A stretch of DNA of 54,249 nt. Source: a virus. Taxonomy: Duplodnaviria > Caudoviricetes. The notes under the pieces are model-generated. The model had not been told where the DNA came from, ran no database searches, and saw only the letters and a program-made list of their open reading frames with translations. The stretch covers positions 1 to 54,249 of the IMG/VR virus record IMGVR_UViG_3300027741_000085. One strand, 5' to 3'. The translations under genes and the position numbers were made by a program. Positions 1 to 54,249 of this stretch are shown here, one piece after another. Numbering within the stretch: position 1 is the first letter of the stretch; each line of letters opens with the position of its first letter.

Positions 1-229
1 CGTTATGCCTGTCTTTGGCAGCCACAGCCAAGCCGAGCATGTAGTGGTCTTCGAGGCCCTCACGGACTCCGAGTTTGGGGGCCTTTCGTAGTCCGTGACC
101 CACTTCCCACCCAATCCGCCAAGCCGATTCGATGAATGGATTGCCCTTTGGAAATTCGGGGTGCGCATCGGCATAACTAGCGGTTGCAGGCAACCCCTCT
201 ATGCTATCTGTCGGTGGATTCGTCTTCAT
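1..229 (-). CDS. Cassette-borne hypothetical protein, truncated at the window edge (MKTNPPTDSIEGLPATASYADAH...KDRHN)
   Basis: Manual translation. The ATG lies in the loop of attC A1 and the frame stays open to position 1, ending at GGCATAAC, the start of the next attC. Confidence 0.65.
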   Translation of the reverse strand, partial: MKTNPPTDSIEGLPATASYADAHPEFPKGNPFIESAWRIGWEVGHGLRKAPKLGVREGLEDHYMLGLAVAAKDRHN

Positions 230-262
230 GGCTTCGTGGTTGCCTGACCCTTATCGTTCTAA
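171..262 (-). mobile_element. attC-like site A1
   Basis: Minus strand AAC-gataa-gggtcaggcaacc...ggttgcctgCaacc-gcta-GTTATGC: an imperfect inverted repeat with an extra C. Its arms are nearly the same as those of site C4. Confidence 0.85.
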
Positions 263-571
263 TCATTCATCGGGCATATTGGGTAGCCACATCCAATGCG
301 TGATATGGCAGTCGATTGCTTCGTCGCTATGCACGTCGATCCAGTCTTTTCCGTCCCATGACGCGACGTAGTGCGTGCCTTGGTCGGTGGCGAGCACTGG
401 CTCAGGATCAGGCGGGAGCCACGAATCGGAGTTTACCCATGTCGGCACATTGCGCTTTTCCGCCATCGCTATGATTTGATCATGGACGCGGTCAGGCATC
501 TGACCAGAACCATGCGGTGCAGCGCAACGGGCAGGGTCTTCGGTGGTTTGAATATCGTTCGCTTCGTTCAT
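263..571 (-). CDS. Cassette gene, DUF551-like protein
   Basis: W-x-P...VL...W...ITHWMWLPNMP motif typical of phage DUF551 proteins. Confidence 0.75.
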   Translation of the reverse strand: MNEANDIQTTEDPARCAAPHGSGQMPDRVHDQIIAMAEKRNVPTWVNSDSWLPPDPEPVLATDQGTHYVASWDGKDWIDVHSDEAIDCHITHWMWLPNMPDE

Positions 572-634
572 ATTTTTTGGTGGTTTAATTGTTGGTTGCG
601 GTCAGCCTGCCCGTTGCTGACCTGATCGTTCTGT
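504..634 (-). mobile_element. attC-like site A2
   Basis: AAC-gatcag-gtcagcaacgggcagg...cctgcccgttgcgctgCac-cgcatg-GTT on the minus strand. Confidence 0.85.
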
Positions 635-879
635 GAATAGATCGGCTCGCTCCACGTCCGCACAGGGAAGTGGATTCGCTCGCCGCCGAGTCCGTTCTTC
701 CGCAGGAGTGAGCAGACACCATCCGCTTGCTCCTTCGTGTCGTGTCGATCTCGGGTGGTGTTTTCGTGCCCCTCGTAGGAGAAGCTAAGCAGGTCGTCAG
801 GCCATTGAGCGCACGAGTTCCATGCGATCACAGAACACGGCACTGGTGGCAACGGAAGGGGATTCTCTGGAGTATCCAT
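568..879 (-). CDS. Cassette gene, hypothetical protein (probable start MDTPENP at 879)
   Basis: The ATG lies in the loop of attC A3. The stop overlaps the next ATG (ATGA) inside attC A2. Confidence 0.7.
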   Translation of the reverse strand: MDTPENPLPLPPVPCSVIAWNSCAQWPDDLLSFSYEGHENTTRDRHDTKEQADGVCSLLRKNGLGGERIHFPVRTWSEPIYSQNDQVSNGQADRNQQLNHQKI

Positions 880-959
880 ATCAGTCTTGATTTGAGTGTT
901 GAGCGGCTTCGTCGGAGCGCATCGCCGCCCCTTCCGTCGCCACAGTTTTGACGTTCTCT
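830..959 (-). mobile_element. attC-like site A3
   Basis: AAC-gtcaaa-actgtggcgacggaaggg...cccttccgttgccacCagt-gccgt-GTT on the minus strand. Confidence 0.85.
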
Positions 960-1246
960 CAACTGAACATAGCGGCATGTTTGATCGCTACGCATGATGA
1001 GCAAACATAGTATTCAGCCTCTTGTGTGCCGCCCTCATAGGCTCCAACTATTTGCACCCATATCAGTTCACCTTCTTTTGCGTCGGAACACACATCGCAG
1101 TCACGCGGATCTTTTGCCCAGAAGTCGCAGCACTCTAGCCCCATCTGGTCAGCCATCTGGTCAACCGTCAGAGAACACGGCACTGCATCCGACACGCAAA
1201 GCGGCGGTGGCGGTTCCGCGGGCGGAGTATGCGCGATCTCACTCAT
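959..1246 (-). CDS. Cassette gene, small Cys-rich (CxxC...CxxC) protein
   Basis: ORF track; CDVC and CSSC motifs; start lies inside attC A4. Confidence 0.7.
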   Translation of the reverse strand: MSEIAHTPPAEPPPPLCVSDAVPCSLTVDQMADQMGLECCDFWAKDPRDCDVCSDAKEGELIWVQIVGAYEGGTQEAEYYVCSSCVAIKHAAMFS

Positions 1247-1279
1247 GATTCGGCGTGCGTATGAGTTTGATCGTTACAT
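1170..1279 (-). mobile_element. attC-like site A4 (outer boundary of array A)
   Basis: AAC-gatcaa-actcatacgcacgc...gcgtgTcggatgCagt-gccgt-GTT, with two extrahelical bases (T and C). Confidence 0.85.
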
Positions 1280-1755
1280 AGTTGACTAATTTTCACAGCC
1301 CAGCCTTCCGTTTGCTTCTGAGCAAATCGCCATGTCCACATGGGGAATGCGCTGACGGCTTCTTTGTATGCGCGCAGGGTGTGTCCGTTGTGGATACGGG
1401 GGCCTTTGACTTCACAGAGGCACACAATTTCTGCGCCTCGCAGGACGACTAAATCAGGGGTGTAACGGGTGCCGCTGGGGAGATGTAAGGTGAAGGGTTC
1501 AAAAAGCACGAGGCAACTTTGATGTTCAGCGATAAGAAACCGCTGATATTCTTGCTCTCCTTGGTTCATCTTCCGGGGGCGGGGCATCCGAATCTGGGGC
1601 GCGCTAGTGGCGGGTTGAACCAAGCCGTTCGTGCGAACGAACTCAGCGGCTTTCACGCCTTTGGGAAGCTGGATCGTGCTGCCAGACGGCAAGTTCATGA
1701 ACGCCCGGTATTCCTTCGCGGTCATCTGCATCTGAGCTGGAGAAAGGGTGCTCAT
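1243..1755 (-). CDS. PD-(D/E)XK endonuclease (phage resolvase / DUF1064-like)
   Basis: YTPDL...EVKG motif; the C-terminal tail is encoded by attC A4. Confidence 0.75.
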   Translation of the reverse strand: MSTLSPAQMQMTAKEYRAFMNLPSGSTIQLPKGVKAAEFVRTNGLVQPATSAPQIRMPRPRKMNQGEQEYQRFLIAEHQSCLVLFEPFTLHLPSGTRYTPDLVVLRGAEIVCLCEVKGPRIHNGHTLRAYKEAVSAFPMWTWRFAQKQTEGWAVKISQLCNDQTHTHAES

Positions 1756-1811
1756 ACGTAAGAGAATGCTTTTTGCTTGTGAAAGCGGGCGTTCTCGGGT
1801 TTACTAAGGGT

Positions 1812-2036
1812 ATGAAACTGGAGGCTCCCACCAATCCTGATGTCATTGAAGCGCTGAATCTGCCCGCCAATGCTCCCTTCATTCAACTGGTGATCCCGCC
1901 GCCCACCTGGTGGCAAGAAAACCGCGAATGGATCATTACCGTGTTTCTCCTGCTGGTCATCGCTGTTTGGATACTGAGCGCCCGCAGTGAGCAGACTGAG
2001 GAGGATTACAACTCCCGGTATGAACTTGTTCATTAG
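1812..2036 (+). CDS. Small membrane protein
   Basis: Hydrophobic stretch WIITVFLLLVIAVWIL. Confidence 0.5.
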   Translation: MKLEAPTNPDVIEALNLPANAPFIQLVIPPPTWWQENREWIITVFLLLVIAVWILSARSEQTEEDYNSRYELVH

Positions 2037-2214
2037 CTTTTTGCTAGGGCTTACTTTGCTCTGCTCCTCCTGTCGTAGATCGTATCCGCATTGTGATCCT
2101 ACTGCGTCAGTATGCCCAGCTTGCGCAAACTGCACCAAGTGCCGCGCCTGCGTAAGTGGCATTACCTGTTCCGTGTGCCGCGAGAATCCACTCCAGAAGT
2201 TTAGAAAGCACTGA
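2020..2214 (+). CDS. Small Cys-rich putative lipoprotein
   Basis: Signal peptide with LCSSC lipobox-like motif followed by several CxxC motifs. Confidence 0.5.
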   Translation: MNLFISFLLGLTLLCSSCRRSYPHCDPTASVCPACANCTKCRACVSGITCSVCRENPLQKFRKH

Positions 2215-2325
2215 GCCAATGCGGCCAAGTAGGTAGAAGGTTGATCTATAAAATAGGTATTCATGCTTATGGATAACGCTGGCTTGGGAATGCTATGACA
2301 TTGGATGGACAGACAGGGCGTAGTT

Positions 2326-2848: not shown

Positions 2849-3058
2849 ATGAGCACCCAATCACCACAACTACAGCTTCCACCCATCGCCTTGGATGCCT
2901 TGTCGCCACGGGGTAAGGATTACCTGATTGCGATGGCGAACAAGGACAACGTTACACCTACAGATGCGTTTATCCGTCTGCTGGATCGTGCCGCCGCCCG
3001 CGCTGGTTTCCGCACTACGCCCGCCTCCAACCAGCAACGCAAAGGAGAATCCGTCTAA
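2849..3058 (+). CDS. Small DNA-binding protein, cro-like by position
   Basis: First gene of the rightward operon, divergent from the repressor. Confidence 0.55.
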   Translation: MSTQSPQLQLPPIALDALSPRGKDYLIAMANKDNVTPTDAFIRLLDRAAARAGFRTTPASNQQRKGESV

Positions 3059-3267
3059 TGAACGAGGAATTACCAGAGCTCGAAGACTCTACAGAAGAGA
3101 ACGCGGTTCTCTACGGTGGGCCTTTTGATGGCTTGGGAATTCCTCCTCATCCGATGGGCGGCGAGATTCTTTACTACGGACATTCCTACCACTGGTGCGC
3201 GTGGATGACTGCCCGCCTGCGCAAGCCAACCTTTATCAGTGAGCATTTGCACCTTCAGTTCTTCTAA
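3058..3267 (+). CDS. Hypothetical protein (GGPFDG motif)
   Basis: Coupled to the previous stop codon; the GGPxDG motif is common in small phage proteins. Confidence 0.6.
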   Translation: MNEELPELEDSTEENAVLYGGPFDGLGIPPHPMGGEILYYGHSYHWCAWMTARLRKPTFISEHLHLQFF

Positions 3268-3272
3268 CCATC

Positions 3273-3458
3273 ATGACGACGACACCACAATCCAAACAAA
3301 ACCTGCGCCGACTGGCCATAGCCAAGCCTGCCTGTCTCTACACCACGCCTTTCTGTGCGAGCTTTCCCACGCCGCCGCTGGTATTTGAAGAGGCGAGCGT
3401 TCAGCAAGAGGGTAAGAAGCTTTATGGACTCCGCACGCGTCGCACAATGTGGCGCTGA
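3273..3458 (+). CDS. Hypothetical protein
   Basis: ORF in operon context. Confidence 0.45.
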   Translation: MTTTPQSKQNLRRLAIAKPACLYTTPFCASFPTPPLVFEEASVQQEGKKLYGLRTRRTMWR

Positions 3459-3500
3459 TAATTAGTCAACCATCCATTCAACCACCCTCCACTCCACTCC

Positions 3501-3779
3501 ATGAAACCCGAAGACATTACACCAGAAGCCGCCCTCAACTGGATACGCAACCAGCGCCGCTACCTCATCGTGCGCGGCTACCTCGGCTACCACATCGCCA
3601 GCATCACGGGAAAGCGACTCACGGAGTCCTTTCGCAGCAATGGTGCCGCCGCCCTCGACCTTGTTCGGAAGGTGAAACCCACGAACCTCAAGGAAACCGC
3701 CACGCCCAGACGCACGGCGCTCAGCCAACGCACTCAGCGCGGCATGGCTGGTTTGGACTTCAGCCTTCTCACCAAATAA
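3501..3779 (+). CDS. Hypothetical basic protein
   Basis: ATG after the AATTAGTCAAC motif and a pyrimidine-rich leader. Confidence 0.65.
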   Translation: MKPEDITPEAALNWIRNQRRYLIVRGYLGYHIASITGKRLTESFRSNGAAALDLVRKVKPTNLKETATPRRTALSQRTQRGMAGLDFSLLTK

Positions 3780-3785
3780 CGCACC

Positions 3786-4151
3786 ATGAGCCTAACCACT
3801 CTTAGCCCTCAGATGCTCAGCGCTATCGCTGGGCAACGGGAAAAACTCATTGTCATTCAGGTGCAGGCGGACCATGCGCCGCAGCCGGAATGGATTACGC
3901 CCCCTGCCCGCAGTGTGCCAGGGAAACCGCCGGTGCGCTGTCCTTACACGGGGCTATCCCGCAGCACGCTCTTAGATCTGATCATTGAGAGCATAGGAAC
4001 AGAACACGAGGTCGTTATCAAACATCGGCGCAAAGCCGGCGCTGATAAAGGCGTCATCCTCATTCACTACCCCAGCCTGAATGCCTACCTTCATTCCCTA
4101 CCTGCGTGGAAAGAAGCCAAGGTGCTGGAAACAGCAGAGCAGGATAATTAG
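3786..4151 (+). CDS. AlpA/excisionase-like DNA-binding protein
   Basis: CPYTGLSRSTLLDLI...GVILIHYPSLNAYL resembles wHTH directionality-factor proteins. Confidence 0.6.
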   Translation: MSLTTLSPQMLSAIAGQREKLIVIQVQADHAPQPEWITPPARSVPGKPPVRCPYTGLSRSTLLDLIIESIGTEHEVVIKHRRKAGADKGVILIHYPSLNAYLHSLPAWKEAKVLETAEQDN

Positions 4152-4188
4152 TCAACCATTAGTAAACATAACACTCCACTCCAAAACC

Positions 4189-4587
4189 ATGAGCTTCCTC
4201 ATTGAAACAAACCAACAACCAGCCGTTACTCCACCAAACGCCTACGAGGTGTTAGGATGGACTGTTCAATATTGCAGTGAGCAAACTGCCGAAGGCCGCG
4301 ATCTACAGACAATTAAAGCGACTGAGATAATCTTAGCATTTCAGCAAGCGTTTCACCTAAAATTAACCACCAGCACCACGCCTCCGACAGCCGCCGGAAC
4401 GTGTGAGTTCAAAGGCGTGCTGAACTCGGACTTCGTAGGCTCTATGGAGTTCTCGGATTTCTGCCCCTGTGAAGTCTTCATCCATGAGGAATCCAAACTG
4501 CTCTACGCCAAAGTAACCGCAGGCGGGTTACTGGAATACACGGACTACATCGGCCAGTTCCAAGGCGAATGGAGAACCGCAGCTTAA
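4189..4587 (+). CDS. Hypothetical protein
   Basis: ATG at 4189 in the long ORF. Confidence 0.6.
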   Translation: MSFLIETNQQPAVTPPNAYEVLGWTVQYCSEQTAEGRDLQTIKATEIILAFQQAFHLKLTTSTTPPTAAGTCEFKGVLNSDFVGSMEFSDFCPCEVFIHEESKLLYAKVTAGGLLEYTDYIGQFQGEWRTAA

Positions 4588-4635
4588 ACAAAAGAATTTT
4601 TCAATCATTCACTCCAACCCAACCAAGTAAACACC

Positions 4636-4893
4636 ATGTCCGAATCCGCTCCATCTCCAACTATCCCTATCACTGGCGAAGCCCCAGAAACTACTCCTAA
4701 AGACAGTCTTACCGTGAAGATGCCTGCGTTTCTGCGGGCGGCACTGGATCGTGAAGCGGCCAAGTGGGGCCAAAGCGCGCCGGAGTTTATCCGGTCCTTT
4801 ATCATCTTCGCCATGCGGCAGGAGGAAGGGGTAACGCTGAAACTGCACGCGGCGGCCATGGAAACAACGGGTGAACTGACTCTTAACGCATGA
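4636..4893 (+). CDS. Ribbon-helix-helix-like DNA-binding protein
   Basis: SLTVKMPAFLRAALDREAAKWGQSAPEFIR fits an RHH pattern. Confidence 0.6.
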   Translation: MSESAPSPTIPITGEAPETTPKDSLTVKMPAFLRAALDREAAKWGQSAPEFIRSFIIFAMRQEEGVTLKLHAAAMETTGELTLNA

Positions 4894-5066
4894 TGCCTAT
4901 TCTCACCGCTTTAGCCAAGAGCTTTCCGATAATACTCGGATTTGGGATTGGCGCTCTCATAAGTCACTTCATGGGGATTAACTACGACCATAACATGCTG
5001 GTATTTATGATGACGAGCATGGGCGTTTATATCGCTAATTTAGCCAACGAACTTGATGCCTTTTAA
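4890..5066 (+). CDS. Small membrane protein (58 aa, not in the ORF track)
   Basis: Manual translation MMPILTALAKSFPIILGFGIGALISHF...; ATGA overlap with the previous gene. Confidence 0.45.
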   Translation: MMPILTALAKSFPIILGFGIGALISHFMGINYDHNMLVFMMTSMGVYIANLANELDAF

Positions 5067-5415
5067 ATCGTTTATGCACTATCCTTATCAACACGGTTTT
5101 TATCAAGCTTGGGCGAAGGCATGGGAGCAGGAGCAAACGGCCCATCCGGTTAAAGACCTGAACACGTTGCCTCCGCTGCCAGCCAAGCCCAAGGAAGGCG
5201 TTTACTCGCGTGCTTTTTGCATGGACGAATACGTCCACCGTTACCTAATTTACTGGCGTGGGCAGTGGCGAACCTGTTTGGTTACCATGGAAACTTTTAG
5301 TGATCTCAAGATATGGCCTAGTCCTGAGCTTTCACTGGAGACTTTACTGAAAATCTTTGACCATCTTGAACCCGCGCATCGCTGGGAACTGCCATTAAGA
5401 CTCCTTCCACCTTGA
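5053..5415 (+). CDS. Hypothetical protein
   Basis: ORF track, operon context; start codon uncertain. Confidence 0.5.
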   Translation: MMPFKSFMHYPYQHGFYQAWAKAWEQEQTAHPVKDLNTLPPLPAKPKEGVYSRAFCMDEYVHRYLIYWRGQWRTCLVTMETFSDLKIWPSPELSLETLLKIFDHLEPAHRWELPLRLLPP

Positions 5416-5455
5416 ACCTTGAACCTTCATTCTTTCTTACCTCCTCTCCCTTGTT

Positions 5456-5872
5456 ATGAAAAGCATCTCCTTTGCCCTCACTGTTCCGCAGTTTCAAGAT
5501 CGTAGTAAATCGGTGACTCGTCGCCTTGCCTGGGATTCGCTCGTCGAAGCCTGCGCCCGTGGTGCGAAACCTATCCTTCGCGCCTGCGAGAAGTGTCAGG
5601 GCTTGAAGAAGGGAGAGAAAGCCGTGGTGCTGGGTTACATCCGTGTCGTGAGCGCACGGAAAGAACAGCTCAGTAAGATGCTGGACAATCCCGACTATGG
5701 CCGCCGGGAAGTGATCAAGGAAGGATTCCCAGAAATGGCTCCCGAGGAGTTCGTGGATTTCTTCGTGAAATCCCATCCCGACAAAGCGAACCCGACCACG
5801 AAGAAGACTTTTGTGACGCGGATTCAGTTTGAATACCTGAGTGAAGCCGAAGCGGCGGCGTTAGAGAATTAG
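5456..5872 (+). CDS. ASCH/PUA-like domain protein
   Basis: ISFALT..QF...KSVTRRL.W...EGFP...FVDFF...VTRIQFEY is typical of phage ASCH proteins. Confidence 0.8.
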   Translation: MKSISFALTVPQFQDRSKSVTRRLAWDSLVEACARGAKPILRACEKCQGLKKGEKAVVLGYIRVVSARKEQLSKMLDNPDYGRREVIKEGFPEMAPEEFVDFFVKSHPDKANPTTKKTFVTRIQFEYLSEAEAAALEN

Positions 5873-5895
5873 TCAACCATCCACCCCTCCATCCC

Positions 5896-6156
5896 ATGAA
5901 TACCGAAAGCTTAGCTGAACTTCTCCCACTTCCAGACACCACCGCGGGTAACTCCGCCCGCCGTCTTGTCTGGTCCCTTTGGAACCAGCATTACACCGTG
6001 AATCTTTATGAACACATTGGGAATCTCCCTCTTCCGGCCCGTGTGGAGTTCGGCGCGTTGATCGCTGGAAACATCGAAGATAGCGAACCCTACCTGCGTC
6101 GGCTTATGACTCAGACGGGTGAGTTTGACCGCATTGACACGCACCCTTTGAACTAA
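5896..6156 (+). CDS. Hypothetical protein
   Basis: ORF after the motif leader. Confidence 0.6.
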   Translation: MNTESLAELLPLPDTTAGNSARRLVWSLWNQHYTVNLYEHIGNLPLPARVEFGALIAGNIEDSEPYLRRLMTQTGEFDRIDTHPLN

Positions 6157-6160
6157 GACC

Positions 6161-6376
6161 ATGAAAGCTCTCAAACCCTTCATTGGAAAGCGTGTTATAC
6201 ATCACGCCAAACTCAAGGACATTGGGACAATCAAAGGGAAAAGCGCATGGATTACCACGATAGACCATCGTGATGTGATCCTTTTGTGTGTTGCAGGGTC
6301 ATGGGCATGGGTGCGCCGCCCAAAATGCAATCCTTACACATGCCGAACTAGAGAGATTACCCCAATAACAGCATGA
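6161..6376 (+). CDS. Hypothetical protein
   Basis: ORF in operon. Confidence 0.55.
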   Translation: MKALKPFIGKRVIHHAKLKDIGTIKGKSAWITTIDHRDVILLCVAGSWAWVRRPKCNPYTCRTREITPITA

Positions 6377-6477
6377 CCTACGGTTCCATTTGCAGCGGCA
6401 TCGAAGCCGCTACCACCGCTTGGCATTCGCTGGGCTGGAAGCCTGCATTCGTGGATTCACTACCCCTTACGAATTAG
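6373..6477 (+). pseudogene. 34-aa N-terminal remnant of a phage C5-cytosine DNA methyltransferase
   Basis: MTYGSICSGIEAATTAWHSLGWKPAF matches the motif-I region of phage Dcm proteins, then stops. Confidence 0.75.
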
Positions 6478-6534
6478 TCAACCATATCCCGCCCTCCTGA
6501 CTACTGGCTTCTGTCTTCTCACTCTTTCCTCCCC

Positions 6535-9195: not shown

Positions 9196-9489
9196 CAGCG
9201 CCGCTCCGAATCGGAAAGAAACTCCATAAGCAAAAAGAAAGCATCAACGTCACATCGGAAGTCGCAATCGGGTAAAGTCTCTGACAAAATTGCCCGCCAC
9301 TTTTTTCAACGCTTCGACAATGGAAGCGACACATGCAAGCGGCTCGCTGCTCGTGGCGGGCGATGGCCGGACAAAGAAACCGACCTCGGTGGAGTCTGTG
9401 AATCCGCCTTCGCATCAATAATTGAGGACGCACTCAATGCGCTGAACGACCAAACTCTGCCGACCGAAGGGGCGGCGAAAAAGCCATGA
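9196..9489 (+). pseudogene. Decayed cassette gene (no start codon; its attC has only the left arm)
   Basis: Frame ...KIARHFFQRFDNGSDTCKRLAARGGRWPDKETDLGGVCESAFASIIEDALNALNDQTLPTEGAAKKP* ends inside attC B1. AAC-gacaag-gtgagc at 9171 has no matching right arm. Confidence 0.5.
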
Positions 9490-9542
9490 AATCACGAAAG
9501 ACTACATCCGCCCCGAAGGTTGGCAGCAGTGCCTTGTTCGGC
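9441..9542 (+). mobile_element. attC-like site B1
   Basis: AAC-gaccaa-actctgccgacc...ggttggcagCagt-gcctt-GTTCGGC. Confidence 0.85.
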
Positions 9543-9806
9543 ACTTGGTCGCCGCCAGACACGGCCCCGAGAAACGGCACGCTCATCCTCGGAGACTTTG
9601 GATGGCCATGGCCGCTGCTTGCGGTCTGGGATGAGTATGATGAGCAATGGGTGACGGCCACCCTGCAAGCCTGCCCGATGGAGAATGGGAAGAAGAACTC
9701 ATACCTTGAAACTGACACGGAAAAGGGCAGCGCATTGAAGCGATGGACTCCGCTACCGCTGCTGCCGAACGTCTCGGATCAGGCGACGGCGAGGAGGAAG
9801 CAATGA
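9486..9806 (+). CDS. Cassette gene, DUF551-like protein
   Basis: WSPPDTAPRNGTLIL...W...WTPLP motif; starts in B1 and stops in B2. Confidence 0.75.
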   Translation: MKSRKTTSAPKVGSSALFGTWSPPDTAPRNGTLILGDFGWPWPLLAVWDEYDEQWVTATLQACPMENGKKNSYLETDTEKGSALKRWTPLPLLPNVSDQATARRKQ

Positions 9807-9855
9807 AGACACGACAGACTAAATCGAGCCGTTGCCTGCATCCGATTTGTTCGGT
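9764..9855 (+). mobile_element. attC-like site B2
   Basis: AAC-gtct-cggatcaggcgacggc...gccgttgcctgCatccg-attt-GTTCGGT. Confidence 0.85.
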
Positions 9856-10087
9856 CTTGTTGGCGTGTCCATTTTGCGGCGGCAAAGCAAAACGTGGCCG
9901 CAAGGCGATAGGCTTCGACACCATCGCTGATATCGTGCGTTGCGGTGCGGTGCGTTGCCCTGTGCATCCAGAAACAACACCGTGCGACCATCGCGGAATA
10001 CTGCGAGGCAAACGAGGCGCGGCGGAAGTGTGGAACCATAGACCGAACGTCGGCGGTGAGGCGACGGCGAGCGAGGCGCACCGCTGA
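9803..10087 (+). CDS. Cassette gene, Lar (restriction alleviation)-like zinc ribbon protein
   Basis: LLACPFCGG...C..C...AAEVWNHR pattern of the Lar family; the ATG overlaps the previous stop. Confidence 0.7.
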   Translation: MKTRQTKSSRCLHPICSVLLACPFCGGKAKRGRKAIGFDTIADIVRCGAVRCPVHPETTPCDHRGILRGKRGAAEVWNHRPNVGGEATASEAHR

Positions 10088-10134
10088 CACGACAAAATTT
10101 TTACGAGCCGTTGCCTCCACTGCTCTTGTTAGAC
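10042..10134 (+). mobile_element. attC-like site B3
   Basis: AAC-gtcggc-ggtgaggcgacggc...gccgttgcctcCact-gctctt-GTTAGAC. Confidence 0.85.
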
Positions 10135-10312
10135 CCAACGAACCACAAATATGCACTCCTGCCCTGAATGCGGACAAGCCTGTTATTGCAATGGCGACAT
10201 CGACGACATTGACGCAAACGCGATGGATGGACCACCGTTCTGCGAACACCCATGTATTGAGCCAGAGAAAGATGATCGCTGGCCTGATGACCCACCAGAA
10301 GTGAAGTCTAAC
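10046..10312 (+). repeat. 264-bp cassette, copy 1 (copy 2 at 35493-35759)
   Basis: Identical apart from two substitutions seen; identity starts and ends at the AAC boxes. Confidence 0.95.
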
Positions 10313-10321
10313 AGTGATTAG
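10151..10321 (+). CDS. Cassette gene, small acidic Cys-rich protein (MHSCPECGQACYC...)
   Basis: Manual translation; duplicate of 35598-35792. Confidence 0.7.
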   Translation: MHSCPECGQACYCNGDIDDIDANAMDGPPFCEHPCIEPEKDDRWPDDPPEVKSNSD

Positions 10322-10343
10322 CCTACCACCCGTTAGCATAATG
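10310..10343 (-). mobile_element. attI-like terminal site of array B
   Basis: 33 of 34 bp identical to 36066-36099; no hairpin; minus strand reads ...GGCTAATCACT-GTT. Confidence 0.6.
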
Positions 10344-17121: not shown

Positions 17122-17157
17122 TATTTGACCGAAACAATAATTAGTTGACTATCCATC

Positions 17158-24343: not shown

Positions 24344-24826
24344 ATGACGACTCCCACTATCACCTACGTCCTTGAGTGTCCTGATGCCCGTGTGAACGAT
24401 CCCGTCGAAGGGAAAAGCGGCAAGGTGTATGGGGTCTATTTGAGGGATGCGGTAACCAGCGTTCCTACGCTGCGGATGACAGCGGCACAGTTTGAGGAAG
24501 CGAGGAAAGATTTGTTTGGTTATCAGCGCAGGCATAACCACATCATCCCACGGGTCGAGATTGAAGGAAGTGAGCCTGAGAAGAAGGCTCCTAAAGAACC
24601 TGATCAGAAAAAGGAAAAGGAAGAACCAAAGCGTTCACACAAGAAAAAAACTTTACCGGAAGTTCCAAAATCACAGGATGGAGAAGCGGCATCTCACCAG
24701 TCTCATAATCTGGAGAACGAGGGTTCAAATCCCTCTCCTGTAACCCCTCCTCCTGCTGCCGCGCCGGCGCCAGCATCTTCTGCACCCTTAAAAACAACGC
24801 CTGACGGGAAGGTGAAGAAATACTGA
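24344..24826 (+). CDS. Hypothetical protein with a low-complexity C-terminus
   Basis: ATG at 24344; Lys/Glu/Pro-rich tail. Confidence 0.6.
   Translation: MTTPTITYVLECPDARVNDPVEGKSGKVYGVYLRDAVTSVPTLRMTAAQFEEARKDLFGYQRRHNHIIPRVEIEGSEPEKKAPKEPDQKKEKEEPKRSHKKKTLPEVPKSQDGEAASHQSHNLENEGSNPSPVTPPPAAAPAPASSAPLKTTPDGKVKKY
24672..24743 (+). tRNA. tRNA-Met(CAT), initiator-like cloverleaf, inside a CDS
   Basis: Acceptor CACAGGA/TCCTGTA with C1:A72 mismatch; D stem GAGA/TCTC; anticodon loop CTCATAA; T arm GAGGG-TTCAAAT-CCCTC; followed by CCC rather than CCA. Confidence 0.75.
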
Positions 24827-26387: not shown

Positions 26388-27158
26388 ATGGCTGAGAAAC
26401 CACCCGGATTTCGCATGGAGACGACATCACCGCATAGCCGCGATGATCTTCTACATGTCCCTTTCCAAATGGTGGCGATGTCGCCTGATACCCGCCCAAA
26501 TTTGGGTGAGAAGCTAAAAGATATTCGATTTGATGCCAATGCGCGCCCAAGCATTTCTAAATTCTCGGATTGGGTGTTAGTGGAAATTGACAGCGGATCG
26601 CTGGTGTTCGGTCAAAACAATCTTCCTACGGCGGCTTTAGCGCTGGAACCAAGTGATACGTTACATGATCGAGATCATTGGAGCTGGCCGACGGTGATAC
26701 GCGGTCAACCGATTTGGCAACATATTATTGGCACAGGTGGAAACTACTTGGAGACAAGAGTCATTATTGATGAAGTGCCAGAGCAAACGTTACCTACGTT
26801 TTTCCTAACGGAAATCTGGTGGACCACTGAACCTTGGCCGCTGGAATTACTTAAAACAAAGCAACCTCTCACTTCTCCCGTGGTGTGGGGCTATCCCGGA
26901 GCGCGAGGAAGTAGGCAAGCACTCCATGAAACTATCGACACGCCCCCACTAACGATCACTTCTATACGCGGACAAACGGCACCGGTTCATATTCCTTCCC
27001 GTCGTTTTCCTGGCACAGATTTCAAGCATTGGACCCGTTACGTGGTGTCTGATAAACAGCCCAAGATTCGAGGCCGTTATCGCCGTGAACGGCGCACGGC
27101 TATTCCTCCTTACGATTCACGTAAATATCCTAACCCACCTTTTGATTTGAGTTCATGA
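26388..27158 (+). CDS. Hypothetical tail-region protein
   Basis: ORF track. Confidence 0.6.
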   Translation: MAEKPPGFRMETTSPHSRDDLLHVPFQMVAMSPDTRPNLGEKLKDIRFDANARPSISKFSDWVLVEIDSGSLVFGQNNLPTAALALEPSDTLHDRDHWSWPTVIRGQPIWQHIIGTGGNYLETRVIIDEVPEQTLPTFFLTEIWWTTEPWPLELLKTKQPLTSPVVWGYPGARGSRQALHETIDTPPLTITSIRGQTAPVHIPSRRFPGTDFKHWTRYVVSDKQPKIRGRYRRERRTAIPPYDSRKYPNPPFDLSS

Positions 27159-27925
27159 GTGACGGCTATTCGAGTGTAGAAGCCTGGCGACAAGCGGAGC
27201 AAGCGCCTTTTTTCATGGCCCCGAATCAGCGCCAAAAAGGCTTTGGTTCGCGGGTGTTTTTGCAAGCACAGACGCCGCAGGATGAATACCCCTTGGATGG
27301 GTGGGGTAACCCAGGCATTCCGGGTAAAGATGGCGTGTCAAGCAGTGGTGTGGATGGACTACCCGGAAAAGACGGAGTAGACGGAGCAGACGGGACGCCT
27401 TCCACGGTAGCAGGTCCAATGGGTCCACCGGGTTTAGCAGGCGCAAACGGAGCCGATGGCAACCCTTCTACGGTAGCTGGCCCCCCTGGAGATGCTGGTT
27501 CTCCAGGAACTCCTGGGAATCCATCAACAGTGCCGGGACCGCCCGGACCGCCCGGACCACCGGGAGCTCCTGGAAGTGATGGCGGACCCCCAGGCCCCCC
27601 AGGTTCACCTGGAGGCCCAGGAAGTGACGGAAGTCCTGGCGGCGCTGGTAGCCCAGGAAGTCCTGGCGGCGCTGGTAGCCCGGGAAGTCCCGGAGCGCCC
27701 GGAATAGACGGCACGGATGGAAGAGACGGCACGGATGGAAGAGACGGTGTAGGTGTGCCTTCCGGTGGCCATACCGGCCAAGTTTTACGCAAACTTGATG
27801 AATCTCCTTACACATCCGTTTGGGATGAATTGGGTAAAACTATCAACGTGGCAGTGCTCGCCAACGATGGGGTTACAACCATTATTCTACATTTTACCAA
27901 CGGCCTTTTAACCTCAACCTCATAA
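27155..27925 (+). CDS. Collagen-like fibre protein
   Basis: Long interrupted Gly-X-Y repeats, including GPP runs. Confidence 0.9.
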   Translation: MSDGYSSVEAWRQAEQAPFFMAPNQRQKGFGSRVFLQAQTPQDEYPLDGWGNPGIPGKDGVSSSGVDGLPGKDGVDGADGTPSTVAGPMGPPGLAGANGADGNPSTVAGPPGDAGSPGTPGNPSTVPGPPGPPGPPGAPGSDGGPPGPPGSPGGPGSDGSPGGAGSPGSPGGAGSPGSPGAPGIDGTDGRDGTDGRDGVGVPSGGHTGQVLRKLDESPYTSVWDELGKTINVAVLANDGVTTIILHFTNGLLTSTS

Positions 27926-28535: not shown

Positions 28536-28670
28536 ATGAAAACCCTCGATCATCTCGACTGGCAACAGATCATCAGCATAGAGCCTGACGGGGAAGACGA
28601 ATGCGTGTGTATCGAAGTCACTCACCCTAGCAAGTGCTACATCACGGATGACGGGATCGTGACACACAAC
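28536..28670 (+). other. Orphan intein C-terminal fragment (IntC, 45 aa)
   Basis: Blocks F and G ending in HN, followed by Thr+1, directly after the start Met. Confidence 0.8.
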
Positions 28671-31600
28671 ACGACGGTGAACACCCCATCTTTGCAAATG
28701 GGGGCTGCACAGGAGAATCCAAATGCTGCATTGCAGGATAAAGCTATTCGTGGTATAGATGAGGCACTCTATGGAGACTCCCGCAAAGAAAATCAGCAAC
28801 GGAGGCGTGGTCACACCGGAAACGATGCCCGATCTTTTAGCCGCGCCGCGCTCCAAGACGAACGCCGAAATAAGGGCGCAGGCGGAGCGCGCGAGGAGCT
28901 GGCGCGCGACACAGGCGCAACGCGAAGAGAAGAAGCCGCTCGTCTCGTAGATTACGCACGGGATAACGGCTTCCTCATTGAGAAGATGCCGGAGCAATGG
29001 AAGCCCTACGCCGAGGGTGATGTGGGCGGACAAGAGCACCATGTGTGGATTCCAGAACAAGGAGCGCGGGTTATCAAGCTTACAACGCTGAGCAAACGCG
29101 GTGCCGACATTTTTGGTATGAACCCTGTGCCCTATCAAGGGAAGTGGGACTTGGACACGAAGGGAGCGACCGCTTACCGCTATCTTCAGCGTCTCGAAGA
29201 CGGAAACCAGACTTTCGGGGATGATCACATTGTGCATGGTGTCTGGAATGATCGTGGAGATGTCCACCTTCTTACGAGTCAGCGGGCCTATGATGGGGAA
29301 CTGCCTAGCAATCTTCCCGAGGGACTCGCAGCAGCCGAAGAAGCGGCGGAGAGCGACCGACGCACGCAAGATGTTGCCGAGGCGTTTGCTAAACAAGGCT
29401 TTGTCGCTCTAGATAACCGCACCTATTACCGTCCTTCCGACAATACAGCCGTCTTTGATGCCCACTTAGCAAACGTCATGTGGGTTACTGGAAAAAGCGG
29501 AGTGCGTCGCCTAGTTCCCTTTGATGTCACGACCATGCATCCCGTGGGCAAGCTCAAGGAGAATTTAGCTCAAGCAGCGCAGGCTGTTGCCGAACCCCAA
29601 CGTCTCTACATGGCCGCCGCACAAGCTGCGGATGAACTCGCCCGTATCAATCGCGAAGCTGGCGCCGCCCGCGTGATCAAGGATGAACTTGAGGAAAAGG
29701 GCCAGCCGGCGAAGCAAATGACCGGAGTGAAGGAGTCGGCAGCCGCCGCTCTGCGTGGCATCTTTGCTGGGAAGTTTGATAAGATGGAAGCCGCCGCCCG
29801 TGGTCTTGGTGACTTGGTGCGCGGGAATGACATTGAACAGCACTTCTCGGAAGCCGCGCTCAATGACTACATGGATAAGGTGCGCCAGTCGGTAAAGGAA
29901 AGCTTCGGCTCGCCTTCCTACTGGCATAACCGACAGAACCGGAAACGTCTCCAGCGCTTCAGTGATACCTTGCTGCCTGTCGCGGCGCGCTTGAATGCCA
30001 CGGGGATTGATCCAACGGGCTTCACGTTCTCCGACTTCGACATGCGCGTGGGCACGATCTTTGAAAGTGACCTCAAGAAAATGAACGCTAAGCCGGGTGA
30101 CATGATCCCGTGGAAGGGCGCGAGTGGCATGATGGAAATGCTCAAGGTAGGGCCGCTCATCATGGACCAAGGCGTGAACGCCCGTAGTTCCAAGAATGGG
30201 CGTTATACCCTGCTCCGCCACATGGCTGCGGATACTCAACAGATCATCTATGACCACTTCAAACAAGAATTCCCTGAAGGCGCGGCGTGGTTAGATCAAT
30301 GGATTGATCCCCTGCTACGGGATGCCACGCAGACGGGGCCGGGTAATGTGCAAGTGCCTGTGTTCAATCGCCACGCGCTGCTCAAGAGTTTTAATGACTG
30401 GTCGCCAGAACTGAAAGCGCTCTTTGGTAGTGAACCCCTGCCAGGCATCACCGGAATGGAAGGCTACACCCCGGACGTGATGGCGCAGAAGGGGCTGATT
30501 AACAGCATCGGTGCTGCCTTGAACGGCAATAGTTACCTGAATCGATTCATGTCCAGCGCTCGCAAATTCAAAGCGGGTGACTTACGCGAAGAGGGCAACG
30601 TCAAGAACCTTTTCGACGGCTTTACGCAGCGGGCCATGGAATCGCATCGTGAGAAGATTCGCCTCAAGACACGGCGCGACATCATTCAGAAAGCCGCCCG
30701 GCCAGCGAACAAGGTTCAACCGGAAGACTTGCGCTCTGGCTTGTTCATTCCCCTCGATGACACGTTCAAGAAGCTTTATGAGGCGCATGTGATCGCCTCT
30801 GGCCTTGATCGTGCGAAGTTCCCCGTGCTCACGCAATCTCTCAATCCTGACCAGAAGAGCGCCTTGCAAAAGCTCTTTGCTGATATGTATCAGCTCTATG
30901 GGAACGGCATGGTGATTCATCGCGATATTCACCGCCAGCTTGTGCTGGGTGCCGCCATGACCCAGACAGAGAATAGCCTCACTAAAGCGCTGTCATGGAT
31001 CATTGGACGACGTAACCGTAACGTTTTAGTAGAGTTGGGCACGTATGCCAATAATTGGAGAGGTAACTTTGTGCTGCAACCCGTGGAACTTATGAACCGG
31101 GTGAACCTTGCGATTGTGAACGGATTGACGGCTCCGTTCAGTAGCAAGGCCAAGGATGAAGGTGAACTAGCCGCTCGCCAAGTAGCTGAGCTCTTCAAGG
31201 GCTTCTTTGCTGATCGCCGTATCTTCGACCTCTGGACACTGAATAACGGTTTAGGGGCGGGGATTGGGAAGATTCGTCCATTTGTGCCGCAAGAAGTCTT
31301 TGGCGACGGTAGCAATCTTAGATATGACGAGGATTTTCGAGACAAAAGCGTGCTCGGTCATTTGAAAAACCTCGACGTAGGCGCGGCGTTCCTGCAAGGC
31401 ATCCGCTACGGGAACATCGATACACATCCAAAGATGAGTAACACGTATCGGCTTCTCCGGGCAGAAGCGGCGCATGTGGCCGCCCGTCAGAAGATTCCCA
31501 ACGCCAAGCGTGAAGCCTTCATCAATGATTGGATGCTGAACGCTCATAAGGATAATCCCCTTGCCTTCCTGCGAGCGTTCAAGGCTAGTCAATCCCGGTT

Positions 31601-34559: not shown

Positions 34560-34945
34560 TTAGGAACGTTCGCATCAGCGATGGCGGAAGTCCCTGCTCT
34601 GTTGACCAGCAGCAGGCTTGTTCGGCTTGTGTGCTGATTCACGATCTGCATTTGCGACTGAGCGCCTTGGAGGCGGCCCATCACCGTCTTGTGTGGAAGG
34701 TGGCAGAAGCGACCAAATGGGAACCGCAAGGCTGCGATGACCAGCCAGTGGGAATAGCTGAATCGTTCTGCCAAAACTGTCGGACGTGCCACTATCCGCT
34801 GTCCGGCTGCCCTGGTGATGGCGGCCCTACGGGACCAGAACCAAATGGAGCAGATGGGCCTGTCGGAATGCCTGGCCCGCGTGGACCAAATGCAGACGGA
34901 GCGCCTAGAGAAACGGAAGAAGAGCACAGGCAACGCCTGAGCTGA
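34556..34945 (+). CDS. Cassette-like gene with Cys motifs and a short Gly-X-Y segment
   Basis: ATGA coupling; spans degenerate attC C1; stops inside attC C2. Confidence 0.55.
   Translation: MIRNVRISDGGSPCSVDQQQACSACVLIHDLHLRLSALEAAHHRLVWKVAEATKWEPQGCDDQPVGIAESFCQNCRTCHYPLSGCPGDGGPTGPEPNGADGPVGMPGPRGPNADGAPRETEEEHRQRLS
34561..34626 (+). mobile_element. Degenerate or chimeric attC-like site C1
   Basis: GAAC-gttcgc-atcagc left arm; short hairpin cctgctctg/cagCagcagg followed by GTTCGGC; the outer arms do not match. Confidence 0.45.
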
Positions 34946-34992
34946 GGCACACAGCCTTGCGGGCTGTGTTGGCCTCCGGCGCTGTGTTCCCC
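34928..34992 (+). mobile_element. attC-like site C2
   Basis: AAC-gcctga-gctgaggcacacagcc...ggctgtgttggcctcCggc-gctgt-GTTCCCC. Confidence 0.85.
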
Positions 34993-35033
34993 TGCGTTCC
35001 GACTGACCTACAAAAGATTTCTAAAAATATCGC

Positions 35034-35304: not shown

Positions 35305-35534
35305 TTTTTGCTCAACAACTCCGAGCCGCCGCTGGCGACCTGACCGCACGGCAGGTCGCCTTTGCGGTGTCTCCGCTCCTGAGCGTCCGCACGGTAGAGG
35401 ACTGGCTCGCGGCCAGACGGACGCCACCGGACTGGACGCACGCATGGATTCTGAAAAACGTCGGAAGTCCAAAGAATCCCCGCAAGCGGGGGAACGTCGG
35501 CGGTGAGGCGACGGCGAGCGAGGCGCACCGCTGA
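35301..35534 (+). CDS. Cassette gene, XRE-like HTH protein
   Basis: LT.RQ.A....LLSVRTVEDW...RRTPP. Confidence 0.75.
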   Translation: MIFAQQLRAAAGDLTARQVAFAVSPLLSVRTVEDWLAARRTPPDWTHAWILKNVGSPKNPRKRGNVGGEATASEAHR

Positions 35535-35581
35535 CACGACAAAATTTTTACGAGCCGTTGCCTCCACTGCTCTTGTTAGAC
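35489..35581 (+). mobile_element. attC-like site C3 (same as B3)
   Basis: Identical to 10046-10134 from the AAC onward. Confidence 0.85.
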
Positions 35582-35597
35582 CCAACGAACCACAAAT

Positions 35598-35792
35598 ATG
35601 CACTCCTGCCCTGAATGCGGACAAGCCTGTTATTGCAATGGCGACATCGACGACATTGACGCAAACGCGATGGATGGACCACCGTTCTGCGAACACCCAT
35701 GTATTGAGCCAGAGGAAGATGATCGCTGTCCTGATGACCCACCAGAAGTGAAGTCTAACGGTCAGGGTCAGGCAACCTCCGAAGCGAAATGA
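35598..35792 (+). CDS. Cassette gene, small acidic Cys-rich protein (copy 2)
   Basis: Duplicate of 10151-10321 with a different C-terminal tail. Confidence 0.7.
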   Translation: MHSCPECGQACYCNGDIDDIDANAMDGPPFCEHPCIEPEEDDRCPDDPPEVKSNGQGQATSEAK

Positions 35793-35855
35793 AGACGAAG
35801 CTACCAGACAAGGCGCACCAAAGCGACGGGGGTTGCCTGCAACCTGTGGTTATGC
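35753..35855 (+). mobile_element. attC-like site C4
   Basis: GTCTAAC-ggtca-gggtcaggcaacc...ggttgcctgCaacc-tgtg-GTTATGC. Confidence 0.85.
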
Positions 35856-36067
35856 GACGGCTCTTCCTAGAGAAGGTGGCCGCAAAGGAAGCTGCTGCTG
35901 CTGCTGCCCGCACCGCCGCCATCCGCCGCAAGCAACTCGGCCCCATGCAGACAGAGGAGGGGATGCGCCATGACATCCAAGGCATCTTTGCTGATGGCGT
36001 CCACGCCCGAGGCGTCGGCTCTGCGGCAACCAAAATTCGCATCAAGGAACATGGGCAAGACGCATAA
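35789..36067 (+). CDS. Cassette gene, hypothetical protein
   Basis: Start lies in the C4 loop; the TAA overlaps the terminal AAC. Confidence 0.65.
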   Translation: MKTKLPDKAHQSDGGCLQPVVMRRLFLEKVAAKEAAAAAARTAAIRRKQLGPMQTEEGMRHDIQGIFADGVHARGVGSAATKIRIKEHGQDA

Positions 36068-36099
36068 CACTGATTAGCCTACCACCCGTTAGCATAATG
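36066..36099 (-). mobile_element. attI-like terminal site of array C, just upstream of int
   Basis: AACACTGATTAGCCTACCACCCGTTAGCATAATG; second copy at 10310. Confidence 0.6.
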
Positions 36100-37285: not shown

Positions 37286-37319
37286 TTGTCAACTAATTCA
37301 GATGTGGCATGAATAGGGC

Positions 37320-53990: not shown

Positions 53991-54249
53991 ATGTGTTTGC
54001 ACCTTTCTTGTTTTTCACCTTTCAATCACAACGTCAAAACTAGTGAGGATGAAGGCAGTAGTGGCCACGCGCAGCCCCTTCGCTCTCATGTGCGGACACC
54101 CCACGGCTTGCGCACGATTGGCTCTCTCCGGTTGGGTGAAGACCTCTCCAGTCCTGATGGTGAGCCTTCACAGGTGAAAGGCATCTATCCGCAAGGAGTG
54201 CAAAAGGTCTATCGAGTCACCTTGGCAAATGGTAAAAGCACCCGTGTTA
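53991..54249 (+). CDS. Partial ORF: short leader then intein/Hint N-terminal region starting at Ala (54069), truncated by the window edge
   Basis: Manual translation ...GH/AQPLRSHVRTPHGLRTIGSLRLGEDLSSPDGEPSQVKGIYPQGVQKVYRVTLANGKSTRV. Confidence 0.75.
   Translation, partial: MCLHLSCFSPFNHNVKTSEDEGSSGHAQPLRSHVRTPHGLRTIGSLRLGEDLSSPDGEPSQVKGIYPQGVQKVYRVTLANGKSTRV

Follow-up and report, generated by a model that had tools for sequence, protein, structure and literature searches.

INTRODUCTION

The question raised by this locus is whether the small genes at one end of a phage genome can be the cassettes of an integron. The DNA analysed (here called the window, and taken at its full length) is the virus record IMGVR_UViG_3300027741_000085 of IMG/VR, a linear record of 54,249 nt from the Caudoviricetes with an estimated completeness of 69%. 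A circular contig was considered and rejected; open reading frames (ORFs) leave the two ends of the contig in opposite directions, and the record carries a linear classification. Integrons are regarded as devices of bacteria, and their cassettes are classically expressed along a gradient set by distance from the promoter. At the left end of the window a series of small ORFs is interspersed with copies of a structured repeat on the minus strand; this is termed array A, and two further groups of the repeat are termed arrays B and C. The evidence presented below makes it very probable that a temperate Verrucomicrobiota phage carries an integron here, and that array A is its integrase-proximal cassette array.

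RESULTS

Structure of array A

The coordinates of all features are collected in Table 1. Reading leftward along the minus strand from 1755 to 1, the gene for a 170-aa nuclease is followed by four small ORFs. A structured repeat of ~100–137 nt lies across every junction between the ORFs of the array, with four copies within positions 1–1281. Starting at the outer (G)AACG box, each repeat passes through an internal loop into a GC-rich inner stem, then through a loop of 45–70 nt into the second arm of the stem, and ends at a GTT box. The best inverted arms in array A are 16 nt long with 94% complementarity (A2) and 12 nt long with 100% complementarity (A3). A preliminary description, made from the letters of the window, had placed four attC-like sites on this strand and the start of a fifth at the window edge. 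All four are found by the covariance model described below, and the fifth is completed on a neighbouring contig.

A2 and A3 fold better than shuffled sequences (z = −2.94 and −2.39 respectively). Since the folding of single sequences backs only these two sites, the case rests on the family as a whole.

The repeats form a family with covarying stems

The covariance model (R1) was built from eight hand-picked copies and run unfiltered over the window. It gives nine matches at E ≤ 1.2e-12, four in array A, three in array B and two in array C, and the next best match has an E value of 0.058. Matches within the window arise by construction, so independent support was sought outside. A gapped pattern derived from the repeat matched 57 contigs of IMG/VR, which were then searched with R1. 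This revealed 131 copies at E < 0.001 in 48 of the 57 loci, organized as same-strand arrays of up to ten. By contrast, 146,617 nt of unrelated phage loci, used as a negative control, gave no match at E < 0.01. An explanation by chance is rejected, and array A is confirmed as real.

Covariation was counted over the 131 sequences, of which 105 are distinct. The cells of the predicted pairs are paired in 91.7% of cases, compared with 71.7% in shuffled alignments (a value attained in none of 500 shuffles) and 23–40% in slid controls. Double-sided changes are present in 305 cells compared with 76.5 in the shuffles, and are seen in 17 of the 20 pairs. The inner stems covary and the central loop is variable, with the length of the repeat ranging from about 59 to 161 nt. 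The outer AAC/GTT pairs are near-invariant, comprising A–U in 102/103 and 100/104 cells and C–G in 89/89, and 115 of the 117 distinct elements have the AAC. The extended R″ box of attC sites has the consensus RYYYAAC. The base following GTT in the repeats is mostly C, where the canonical R′ consensus has a purine.

The strand that folds can be read from the wobble pairs. One stem pair is G·U in 56 sequences, A–U in 29 and G–C in 5, and over all paired cells there are 80 G·T or T·G combinations compared with 11 A·C or C·A. This excess of G·U shows that the strand read by R1 is the one that folds, and in the window this is the ORF-sense strand. The frame in which the conserved 3′ block of the repeat is translated differs from copy to copy (A1 and A2 compared with B1; A4 compared with C2), and the block is therefore conserved at the level of the nucleotide sequence.

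There is no Rfam family for the repeat, the only Rfam match in the window being a tRNA. Two other searches were discarded. The short motif RAACGATMA is not enriched (two matches compared with 1.74 expected), and a generic scan for hairpins closed by AAC and GTT was too noisy to use. A further element at 34926–34997 (plus strand) resembles a short version of the repeat, with AACG and GTTCC boxes, a stem of 11–13 bp and a loop of 5 nt. It has an R1 E value of 0.058 and a fold z of −2.58, and is located just after the end of an ORF, with an AT-rich stretch behind it. It may represent a terminator or else a loop-less attC.

The repeats are attC sites of a Verrucomicrobiota type

The gapped pattern was also run over one genome per prokaryotic species, and 80 loci were returned. 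R1 confirms 19 of these, 18 labelled Verrucomicrobiota and one a 2-kb contig labelled 'Pirellula'; the remaining 61, from many phyla, have no R1 match. An integron integrase (IntI) above the TIGR02249 cut-off is encoded in four of five R1-positive host genomes and in none of 14 control genomes. The R1 sites of the hosts adjoin intI and lie on its coding strand (all five matches in four IntI loci), and R1 thus reads the attC bottom strand. In one such locus (L181) intI is located at 1462–2280 (minus), the cassette ORFs at 2370–2825 and 2992–3483 (plus), and the R1 sites at 2873–2969 and 3502–3598 (minus). The sites are on the intI strand and the cassette ORFs on the opposite strand, which is the textbook layout. 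Across 145 genomes of the host family, R1 matches (E ≤ 1e-5) occur in 123 and IntI above the cut-off in 55.

The repeats are attC sites, because the same family flanks true intI genes in Verrucomicrobiota and in related phages. The identification made in the preliminary description stands in this sense for all the sites of array A, with the qualification that A1 is a homologue by sequence with a poor predicted hairpin. When all loci were searched by tblastn with the cassette proteins, the only match was for the cassette-1 ORF (ORF2), in the locus L004, and no cassette common to phage and host arrays was seen.

A chromosomal array of the same family is seen at 3537–6493 of a 748-kb contig (L060) from a metagenome-assembled genome of Verrucomicrobiaceae. 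It has five near-identical attC sites with ORFs of 128–228 aa on the opposite strand, and starts 15 nt after a long ORF read by eye as a cysteinyl-tRNA synthetase. The IntI of that genome is encoded on another contig.

Array A continues to an attI-like site beyond the window

A 50-mer from positions 21–70 of the window identified L189, a metagenome contig of 1,132 nt from another assembly. It is identical to window positions 127–1 at 127 of 127 bases and extends a further 1,005 nt to the left. Moving in this direction, attC A5 is completed at L189 118–219 (33.8 bits, E = 2.3e-7), with a stop/start overlap ATGA in its loop. It is followed by an ORF of 287 aa resembling PAPS reductase (Pfam E = 2.6e-4, 21.5 bits compared with a cut-off of 22.5). 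A terminal site of 34 nt then lies at L189 1008–1041, identical at 34 of 34 positions to the copy at the end of array B. An ORF starts 14 nt past this site, and its 25 visible residues align start-to-start with host IntI, with 11 of 20 residues identical to the IntI N-terminus (E = 4e-5). It had been predicted from the window that array A would continue leftward and end in the same 34-bp site as arrays B and C, and L189 bears this out, adding one cassette and then the identical site.

Counting the L189 copy there are three such sites for this phage, each at the end of an array. The three sites, together with the regions 40–70 nt upstream of six phage intI genes, contain the invariant core A.AC.A..ATTA.CC. 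As this core is common to the upstream regions of intI, we read the 34-nt terminal site as attI-like; it is a putative attI. A 25-nt core of the terminal site was absent from the 57 viral loci when up to five substitutions were allowed.

Phage cassettes are inverted and locked in frame

The viral and bacterial arrays differ in the strand on which the spacers between sites are open. Of the 66 viral spacers, 21 are open only on the R1 strand and 4 only on its complement, 27 are open on both strands and 14 are closed on both; among 23 bacterial spacers none is open only on the R1 strand and 16 are open only on the opposite one. The phage cassette ORFs are inverted with respect to those of host arrays, lying on the attC bottom strand.

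The reading frame is also constrained. The AAC box is an in-frame codon (Asn) of an upstream ORF of at least 40 codons in 98 of the 117 distinct viral elements, the two alternative frames giving 18 and 31. The stop codon of that ORF falls inside the element in 92 of these 98, with an overlap of stop and ATG in the form ATGA in 54. ORFs of at least 50 codons extend from the loop ATG in 41 of 56 cases (13 of 56 for the control frame), and 20 of 31 ORFs that start in a loop reach the AAC of the following site in frame.

Homology between cassette proteins begins past the part encoded by attC, at residue 25 for the cassette-1 protein and at residues 16–22 for the PAPS-reductase-like protein. The cargo is phage-like, comprising a Lar-type restriction-alleviation protein, DUF551-like proteins and small Cys-rich proteins. 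The Lar-like ORF (9803–10084, on the sense strand of array B) scores 29.0 bits with Pfam Lar_restr_allev, above the cut-off of 28.6. The cassette-3 ORF matches Pfam DUF551 at E = 0.0054 (18 bits, under the cut-off of 22), with weak matches to PHROG 924 and 7704. Homologues of the PAPS-reductase-like protein occur in 19 phage loci without attC. Most of the cassette ORFs are not named by Pfam or PHROGs, and the cassette-2 ORF has no match in either.

Cassette boundaries fall at the AAC box

IntI cuts the bottom strand of attC at the AAC box (AA|C). Two comparisons of arrays with and without a unit locate the boundaries of exchange. Within the window a 271-nt unit (attC B3 with an ORF encoding a 56-aa Cys-rich protein) is present twice at 99% identity, at 10045–10315 and 35492–35762, ~25 kb apart. 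In array B it directly precedes the terminal site, whereas in array C a 303-nt unit intervenes. This second unit (attC C2 with a 92-aa ORF) is absent from array B; it starts right after TCTAAC and ends with CATAAC, so that TAAC flanks it. The second case comes from two phage contigs (L013 and L044) that are 99.98% identical over 5.4 kb, where L044 alone has a 304-nt unit of attC and ORF, bounded by CGAACG on both sides. The cut can be placed only within the shared 4–6 nt (TAAC or CGAACG). Histograms of homology end-points were dominated by similarity of one repeat to another and resolved no breakpoints, and only individually inspected cases were used.

The exchanged unit is an attC plus the ORF downstream of it, with its boundary in the AAC box on the 5′ side of the folded strand. 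For the cassettes of the preliminary description it is the make-up that changes: with the folded bottom strand being the ORF-sense strand, they are inverted.

A third comparison concerns the left edge of the window, which appears to coincide with such a boundary. In the metagenomic run X1 one contig (depth 15.4) covers window 1–1551. Two others, 765 and 938 letters long (depths 8.9 and 7.8), each have their last 30 letters on window 1–30 and extend to the left. They appear to represent alternative neighbours on the left side, both joined at the AACG of attC A5. The length of the 938-letter contig agrees to within about 3 nt with the path of L189 as far as the repeated 34-nt site. A variant phage contig (L188) that is 99.0% identical over 1,928 nt starts at the first base of the window. 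The assemblies of the window and of L188 both begin at the G after the AAC of attC A5, and the X1 contigs abut there from the left. As independent assemblies end at the same base, the contig end of the window looks like the product of cassette polymorphism.

Related phages encode their own integron integrases

IntI was searched for in 25 related viral records, many of which are fragments. It is present in eight, at 325–355 bits, and one further record has a split IntI; among records that are at least 90% complete it is found in 6 of 11. Two of the IntI-bearing phage records have direct terminal repeats and an estimated completeness of 100%. All 20 R1 matches around phage intI genes are on the intI strand, 18 of them within 1.5 kb upstream. 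The phage IntI proteins share 48–96% identity among themselves and 38–47% with four host IntIs.

The nuclease gene and the junction motif

The array starts inside the nuclease gene. Its product is AHJR-like (Pfam E = 0.003; 17.4 bits, under the cut-off of 26.1), and the catalytic E..PD..EVK motif is invariant across six aligned nuclease homologues. The protein ends in ...QLC-N-DQTHTHAES*, of which N-DQTHTHAES lies within A1, and the tail SQLCNDQTHTHAES is missing from all five non-self homologues. This agrees with the proposal that the array begins in the last codons of the nuclease and that attC supplies its stop codon. The arrangement had been singled out as that of a backbone gene; it is correct and no peculiarity, since taking the stop from the next attC is the rule in phage arrays.

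The motif noted 5 bp from the outer AAC was located as AATTAGTCAAC. There are seven exact copies in the window compared with 0.53 expected at up to one mismatch: 3460, 4146, 5867, 6472, 8601 and 43637 on the plus strand and 1291 on the minus strand. The copies mostly contain the stop codon of a gene, followed by a C-rich, G-poor leader and then the next ATG; of the six located away from array A, five stand 18–52 nt ahead of the ATG of a gene. A sister motif AATTAGTTGAC, a variant of AATTAGTCAAC with the last six bases reverse-complemented, has five copies at other gene junctions, at 17139, 21489 and 24288 (plus) and at 37298 and 13689 (minus), and the attI-like site contains the variant GATTAGCCTAC. 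Judged from these positions AATTAGTCAAC is probably a gene-start signal, acting in promotion or in translation.

Upstream of the nuclease gene is a helix-turn-helix regulator (2326–2748, minus; Cro/CI-like, YdaS-type, E = 5e-5, below cut-off). The interval separating the two contains a pair of small plus-strand ORFs (1773–2214), of which one has a membrane-like segment and the other is Cys-rich. Given these plus-strand ORFs, the operon of array A would start at the short divergent gap 1756–1811. This gap contains the junction-motif variant TTAGTAAAC.

Other features of the window

Two giant ORFs are present on the plus strand, one of 4,450 aa at 39382–52734 and one of 1,503 aa at 28536–33047. 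They have ~2.8 kb in common (29711–32549 and 49299–52110) at 72–79% DNA identity, which points to a duplicated module in the two proteins. Four 27-nt repeats with a glycine-rich, collagen-like periodicity are found at 27560–27688 (plus), inside the ORF 27155–27925, and a tRNA-Met (CAT) gene lies at 24671–24746 (plus), in the middle of the structural region. Close to the right end, an ORF at 53219–53920 (minus) resembles by eye an HNH-type homing endonuclease, and an ORF at 53991–54248 (plus) that leaves the window resembles by eye the start of a Hint/intein domain.

Table 1. Positions of the cassette arrays, attI-like sites and associated features in the window
Feature	Position	Strand	Details
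AATTAGTCAAC gene-junction motif	1281..1291	-	5 nt upstream of the A1 AAC box (1275-1273)
AHJR-like PD-(D/E)XK nuclease gene	1243..1755	-	170 aa; last 11 codons inside attC A1
attC A1	1165..1281	-	AAC 1275-1273, GTT 1176-1174; R1 58.4 bits, E 1.2e-12; degenerate copy
cassette-1 ORF	959..1246	-	95 aa, Cys-rich; ATG in A1 loop, overlaps nuclease stop as ATGA
attC A2	825..961	-	AAC 955-953, GTT 836-834; R1 84.9 bits
cassette-2 ORF	568..879	-	103 aa; ATG in A2 loop; A3 AAC read as Asn; stop in A3 loop
attC A3	499..636	-	AAC 630-628, GTT 510-508; R1 60.4 bits; fold closed by CAGAAC/GTTCTG
cassette-3 ORF	263..571	-	102 aa, DUF551-like; ATG overlaps preceding stop as ATGA
attC A4	166..264	-	AAC 258-256, GTT 177-175; R1 74.6 bits; near relative of attC C2 (35751-35860)
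cassette-4 ORF	1..229	-	76 codons in window; ends 10 codons further, in A5 loop on L189
attC A5	1..4	-	AACG = first four bases only; remainder on contig L189 118-219
array B	9439..10136	+	attC B1 9439-9547 (91 bits), B2 9762-9857 (76.4 bits), B3 10040-10136 (63.7 bits)
attI-like 34-nt site of array B	10310..10343	+	
array C	35487..35860	+	attC C1 35487-35583, C2 35751-35860; C1 = 99% copy of B3 plus ORF
attI-like terminal site of array C	36066..36099	+	then tyrosine integrase 36128-37285

DISCUSSION

Array A as the probable cassette array of an integron

Family membership, the folding strand, the position of the boundaries, the polarity towards intI and the orientation and frame of the ORFs are all observed, and they underlie the reading of array A that we hold with high confidence, as the integrase-proximal cassette array of an integron in a temperate Verrucomicrobiota phage. 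The array would begin 5 nt after the junction motif, at the 3′ end of the AHJR-like nuclease gene, and its five attC sites (the fifth lying across the left edge) would separate five cassettes. It would end ~1 kb to the left of the window with the 34-nt attI-like site, followed by the intI-like gene. IntI is expected to cut the folded, ORF-sense strand at AA|C, excising and inserting circles of attC plus ORF, with the 34-nt site serving as attI. The enzyme may be the phage's own IntI or, failing that, the IntI of the host.

With the ORFs on the attC bottom strand, the array would be transcribed within a phage operon, starting at a phage promoter ahead of the nuclease gene and heading for attI and intI. 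Each ORF would start at an ATG in the loop of its own attC, continue for want of a stop of its own through the next AAC (read as Asn), and terminate in the loop of the next attC or in attI. As the ORFs lack their own stop and overlap as ATGA, expression would pass from ORF to ORF by translational coupling, often at ATGA, and not from a Pc promoter.

A number of observations weigh against this interpretation. The predicted folds of A1, A4 and A5 are no better than those of shuffled sequences (z = +0.29, −0.29 and −0.12 respectively), and the alignment used to count covariation was fitted to the R1 model, which favours structure. A survey of phage integrons (PMC9892861) gives the R′ consensus of attC as GTTRRRY. 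Typical of attC sites but not obligatory, this consensus fits only two of the nine copies in the window, B3 and C1 (GTTAGAC), while five have GTTC and two GTTATG. The intI gene of array A is represented by 25 residues, on a contig from another sample that overlaps the window by 127 nt. The remainder of the gene was not found by an exact 50-mer in IMG/VR or by 133 nt in the 145 genomes of the host family. The window's own integrase (36128–37285) is of the ordinary phage type and not IntI, scoring 66.7 bits with PF00589 and only 18.7 bits with TIGR02249. No contig joining across a cassette was found in three freshwater runs, two of which (X2 and X3) cover the stretch partly.

The remaining points concern the boundaries. 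The homologue of the cassette-1 ORF in L004 (79% identity over residues 25–95) has DNA in common with the window only from the G that opens GTT as far as the G following AAC, and the attC interiors that flank it are unrelated in the two. Cutting at AA|C would not by itself lead one to expect this. In addition, one attC is 94% identical in L016 and in L026/L044, with unrelated flanks. From these two cases, either turnover is faster in the attC interiors than in the ORFs, or the GTT box is a further place of exchange.

Phage-borne activity, relics and messenger RNA hairpins

A wider proposal can be put forward tentatively, at somewhat less than an even chance. The phage lineage may run an integron of its own with a phage-specific IntI, embedded in an operon and with cassettes of a standardized frame that are inverted, lack a stop codon and begin within the attC loop. 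The hairpin would double as a single-stranded DNA recombination site and as a coupler of ribosomes on the mRNA, and the cargo would be a shuffled pool of small phage accessory or counter-defence genes.

It is unlikely that the arrays, while genuine, are passive relics, i.e. clusters of attC sites lacking integron integrases (CALINs) that were acquired from host integrons or are served only by host IntI. The window encodes no IntI, nor do 16 of the 25 related viral records (many of them fragments). However, intI genes stand directly behind the arrays in other phages, including the two records with direct terminal repeats, and an IntI-like ORF starts after array A. The host family commonly has both IntI and the R1 attC family, and could in that respect have donated the arrays, but the phage IntIs form a group of their own and the phage arrays, being inverted and frame-locked, are unlike those of the hosts. 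Integrase-less CALINs are indeed reported in phages (PMC9892861). Against such an origin in the present case stand the phage-type cargo (Lar-like, DUF551-like and PAPS-reductase-like, the latter with its homologues in attC-free phage loci) and the cassette difference between phage genomes that are 99.98% identical.

That the repeats act only as mRNA junction hairpins in coupling or processing, with shuffling by homologous recombination as established for the PeSL motifs of T4-type phages (PMC2839356), is highly improbable: the folding of the sense strand with its conserved G·U pair, the stop and start codons in the loop, the constant sense orientation in phage operons and the exchange or loss of the repeat interiors flanking cassette-1 homologues would all suit it, but the bacterial copies are antisense to cassette ORFs beside IntI genes and so have no mRNA-junction role there, two clean insertions are bounded by just 4–6 nt of identity at the invariant AAC box, and the AAC/GTT boxes are invariant rather than covarying. 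In phages we infer that a role as RNA, in addition to recombination, forms part of the best explanation.

Significance

The phage arrays suggest that some phages run their own gene-shuffling system. The integrase lineage of the phage group is its own, a single genome can hold as many as three arrays, and some of its genomes are complete with terminal repeats. Site-specific shuffling of small accessory genes would on this basis be open to phages. Since the attC type is common to the phages and the integrons of the host family, it offers a direct route for cassette traffic between the two gene pools. The inverted, frame-locked and stop-less design would constitute a mode of expression other than the promoter-distance gradient. 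If the phages do operate an integron of their own, its cargo pool would mirror the biobanks of defence genes in bacterial integrons, the Lar-like anti-restriction protein being one example.

Comparison with known systems

Integron components have been found in phages before. Qi et al. (2023; PMC9892861) surveyed 10,705 phage genomes of NCBI and report, in the part of the text available, integron components in 21 phages, and a count of 17 CALINs. The one complete integron described there resides in a prophage of Shewanella that is regarded as cryptic, and its IntI is 95.3% identical to that of a Shewanella strain (PMC9892861). The two studies have in common clusters of attC, and once in theirs a complete integron, in phage or prophage genomes. 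As far as the available text goes, the present case differs in involving a whole group of uncultured Verrucomicrobiota phages, with an IntI lineage of their own and inverted, frame-locked cassettes. In the literature, including that part of PMC9892861, no account was found of either feature, an IntI lineage belonging to phages of Verrucomicrobiota or cassettes that are inverted and locked in frame.

The PeSL elements of T4-type phages (Arbiol et al. 2010; PMC2839356) are similar in that structured repeats flank small accessory ORFs in plastic regions of phage genomes and mark the breakpoints at which modules are gained, lost or exchanged. Of known phage elements they come closest in function, but they differ in kind. 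They are intergenic units of a promoter with a terminator, and their exchange takes place by recombination from repeat to repeat (PMC2839356). The elements found here are instead located within coding sequence, have invariant AAC and GTT boxes and belong to an attC family, with read-through in 98 of 117. An intergenic sigma-70-type promoter with a terminator stem-loop, as characterizes PeSL, is not what is seen, for ORFs read through the elements and start inside them; no scan for promoters was made.

There is also a close likeness to sedentary chromosomal integrons. Both have an imperfect hairpin with outer AAC...GTT boxes, covarying stems and a variable loop, and in both the sites have the same orientation, are spaced 250–900 nt apart and have a polarity fixed towards an adjacent intI (TIGR02249). 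The boundary is at the AAC box of the folded strand, equivalent to G|TT on the other strand, and the attC sites are highly similar within a lineage. The phage arrays differ from sedentary integrons in that the ORFs occupy the attC bottom strand and point to attI and intI, mostly lack a stop of their own and start inside the attC loop. In addition, the base after GTT is mostly C and not a purine, and three arrays are present in one 54-kb phage genome, each ending in an attI-like copy. Compared with host arrays, which have spacers of about 440–860 nt, the phage spacers are mostly 140–600 nt and the cassettes short.

Inverted cassettes are also known from large chromosomal integrons, where they are a minority and have their own promoters, as for example in toxin-antitoxin pairs. 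There too the direction of the ORF with respect to attC is the reverse of the usual one. In the phage arrays, by contrast, inversion is the rule, and the ORFs are chained together by overlapping stop and start codons.

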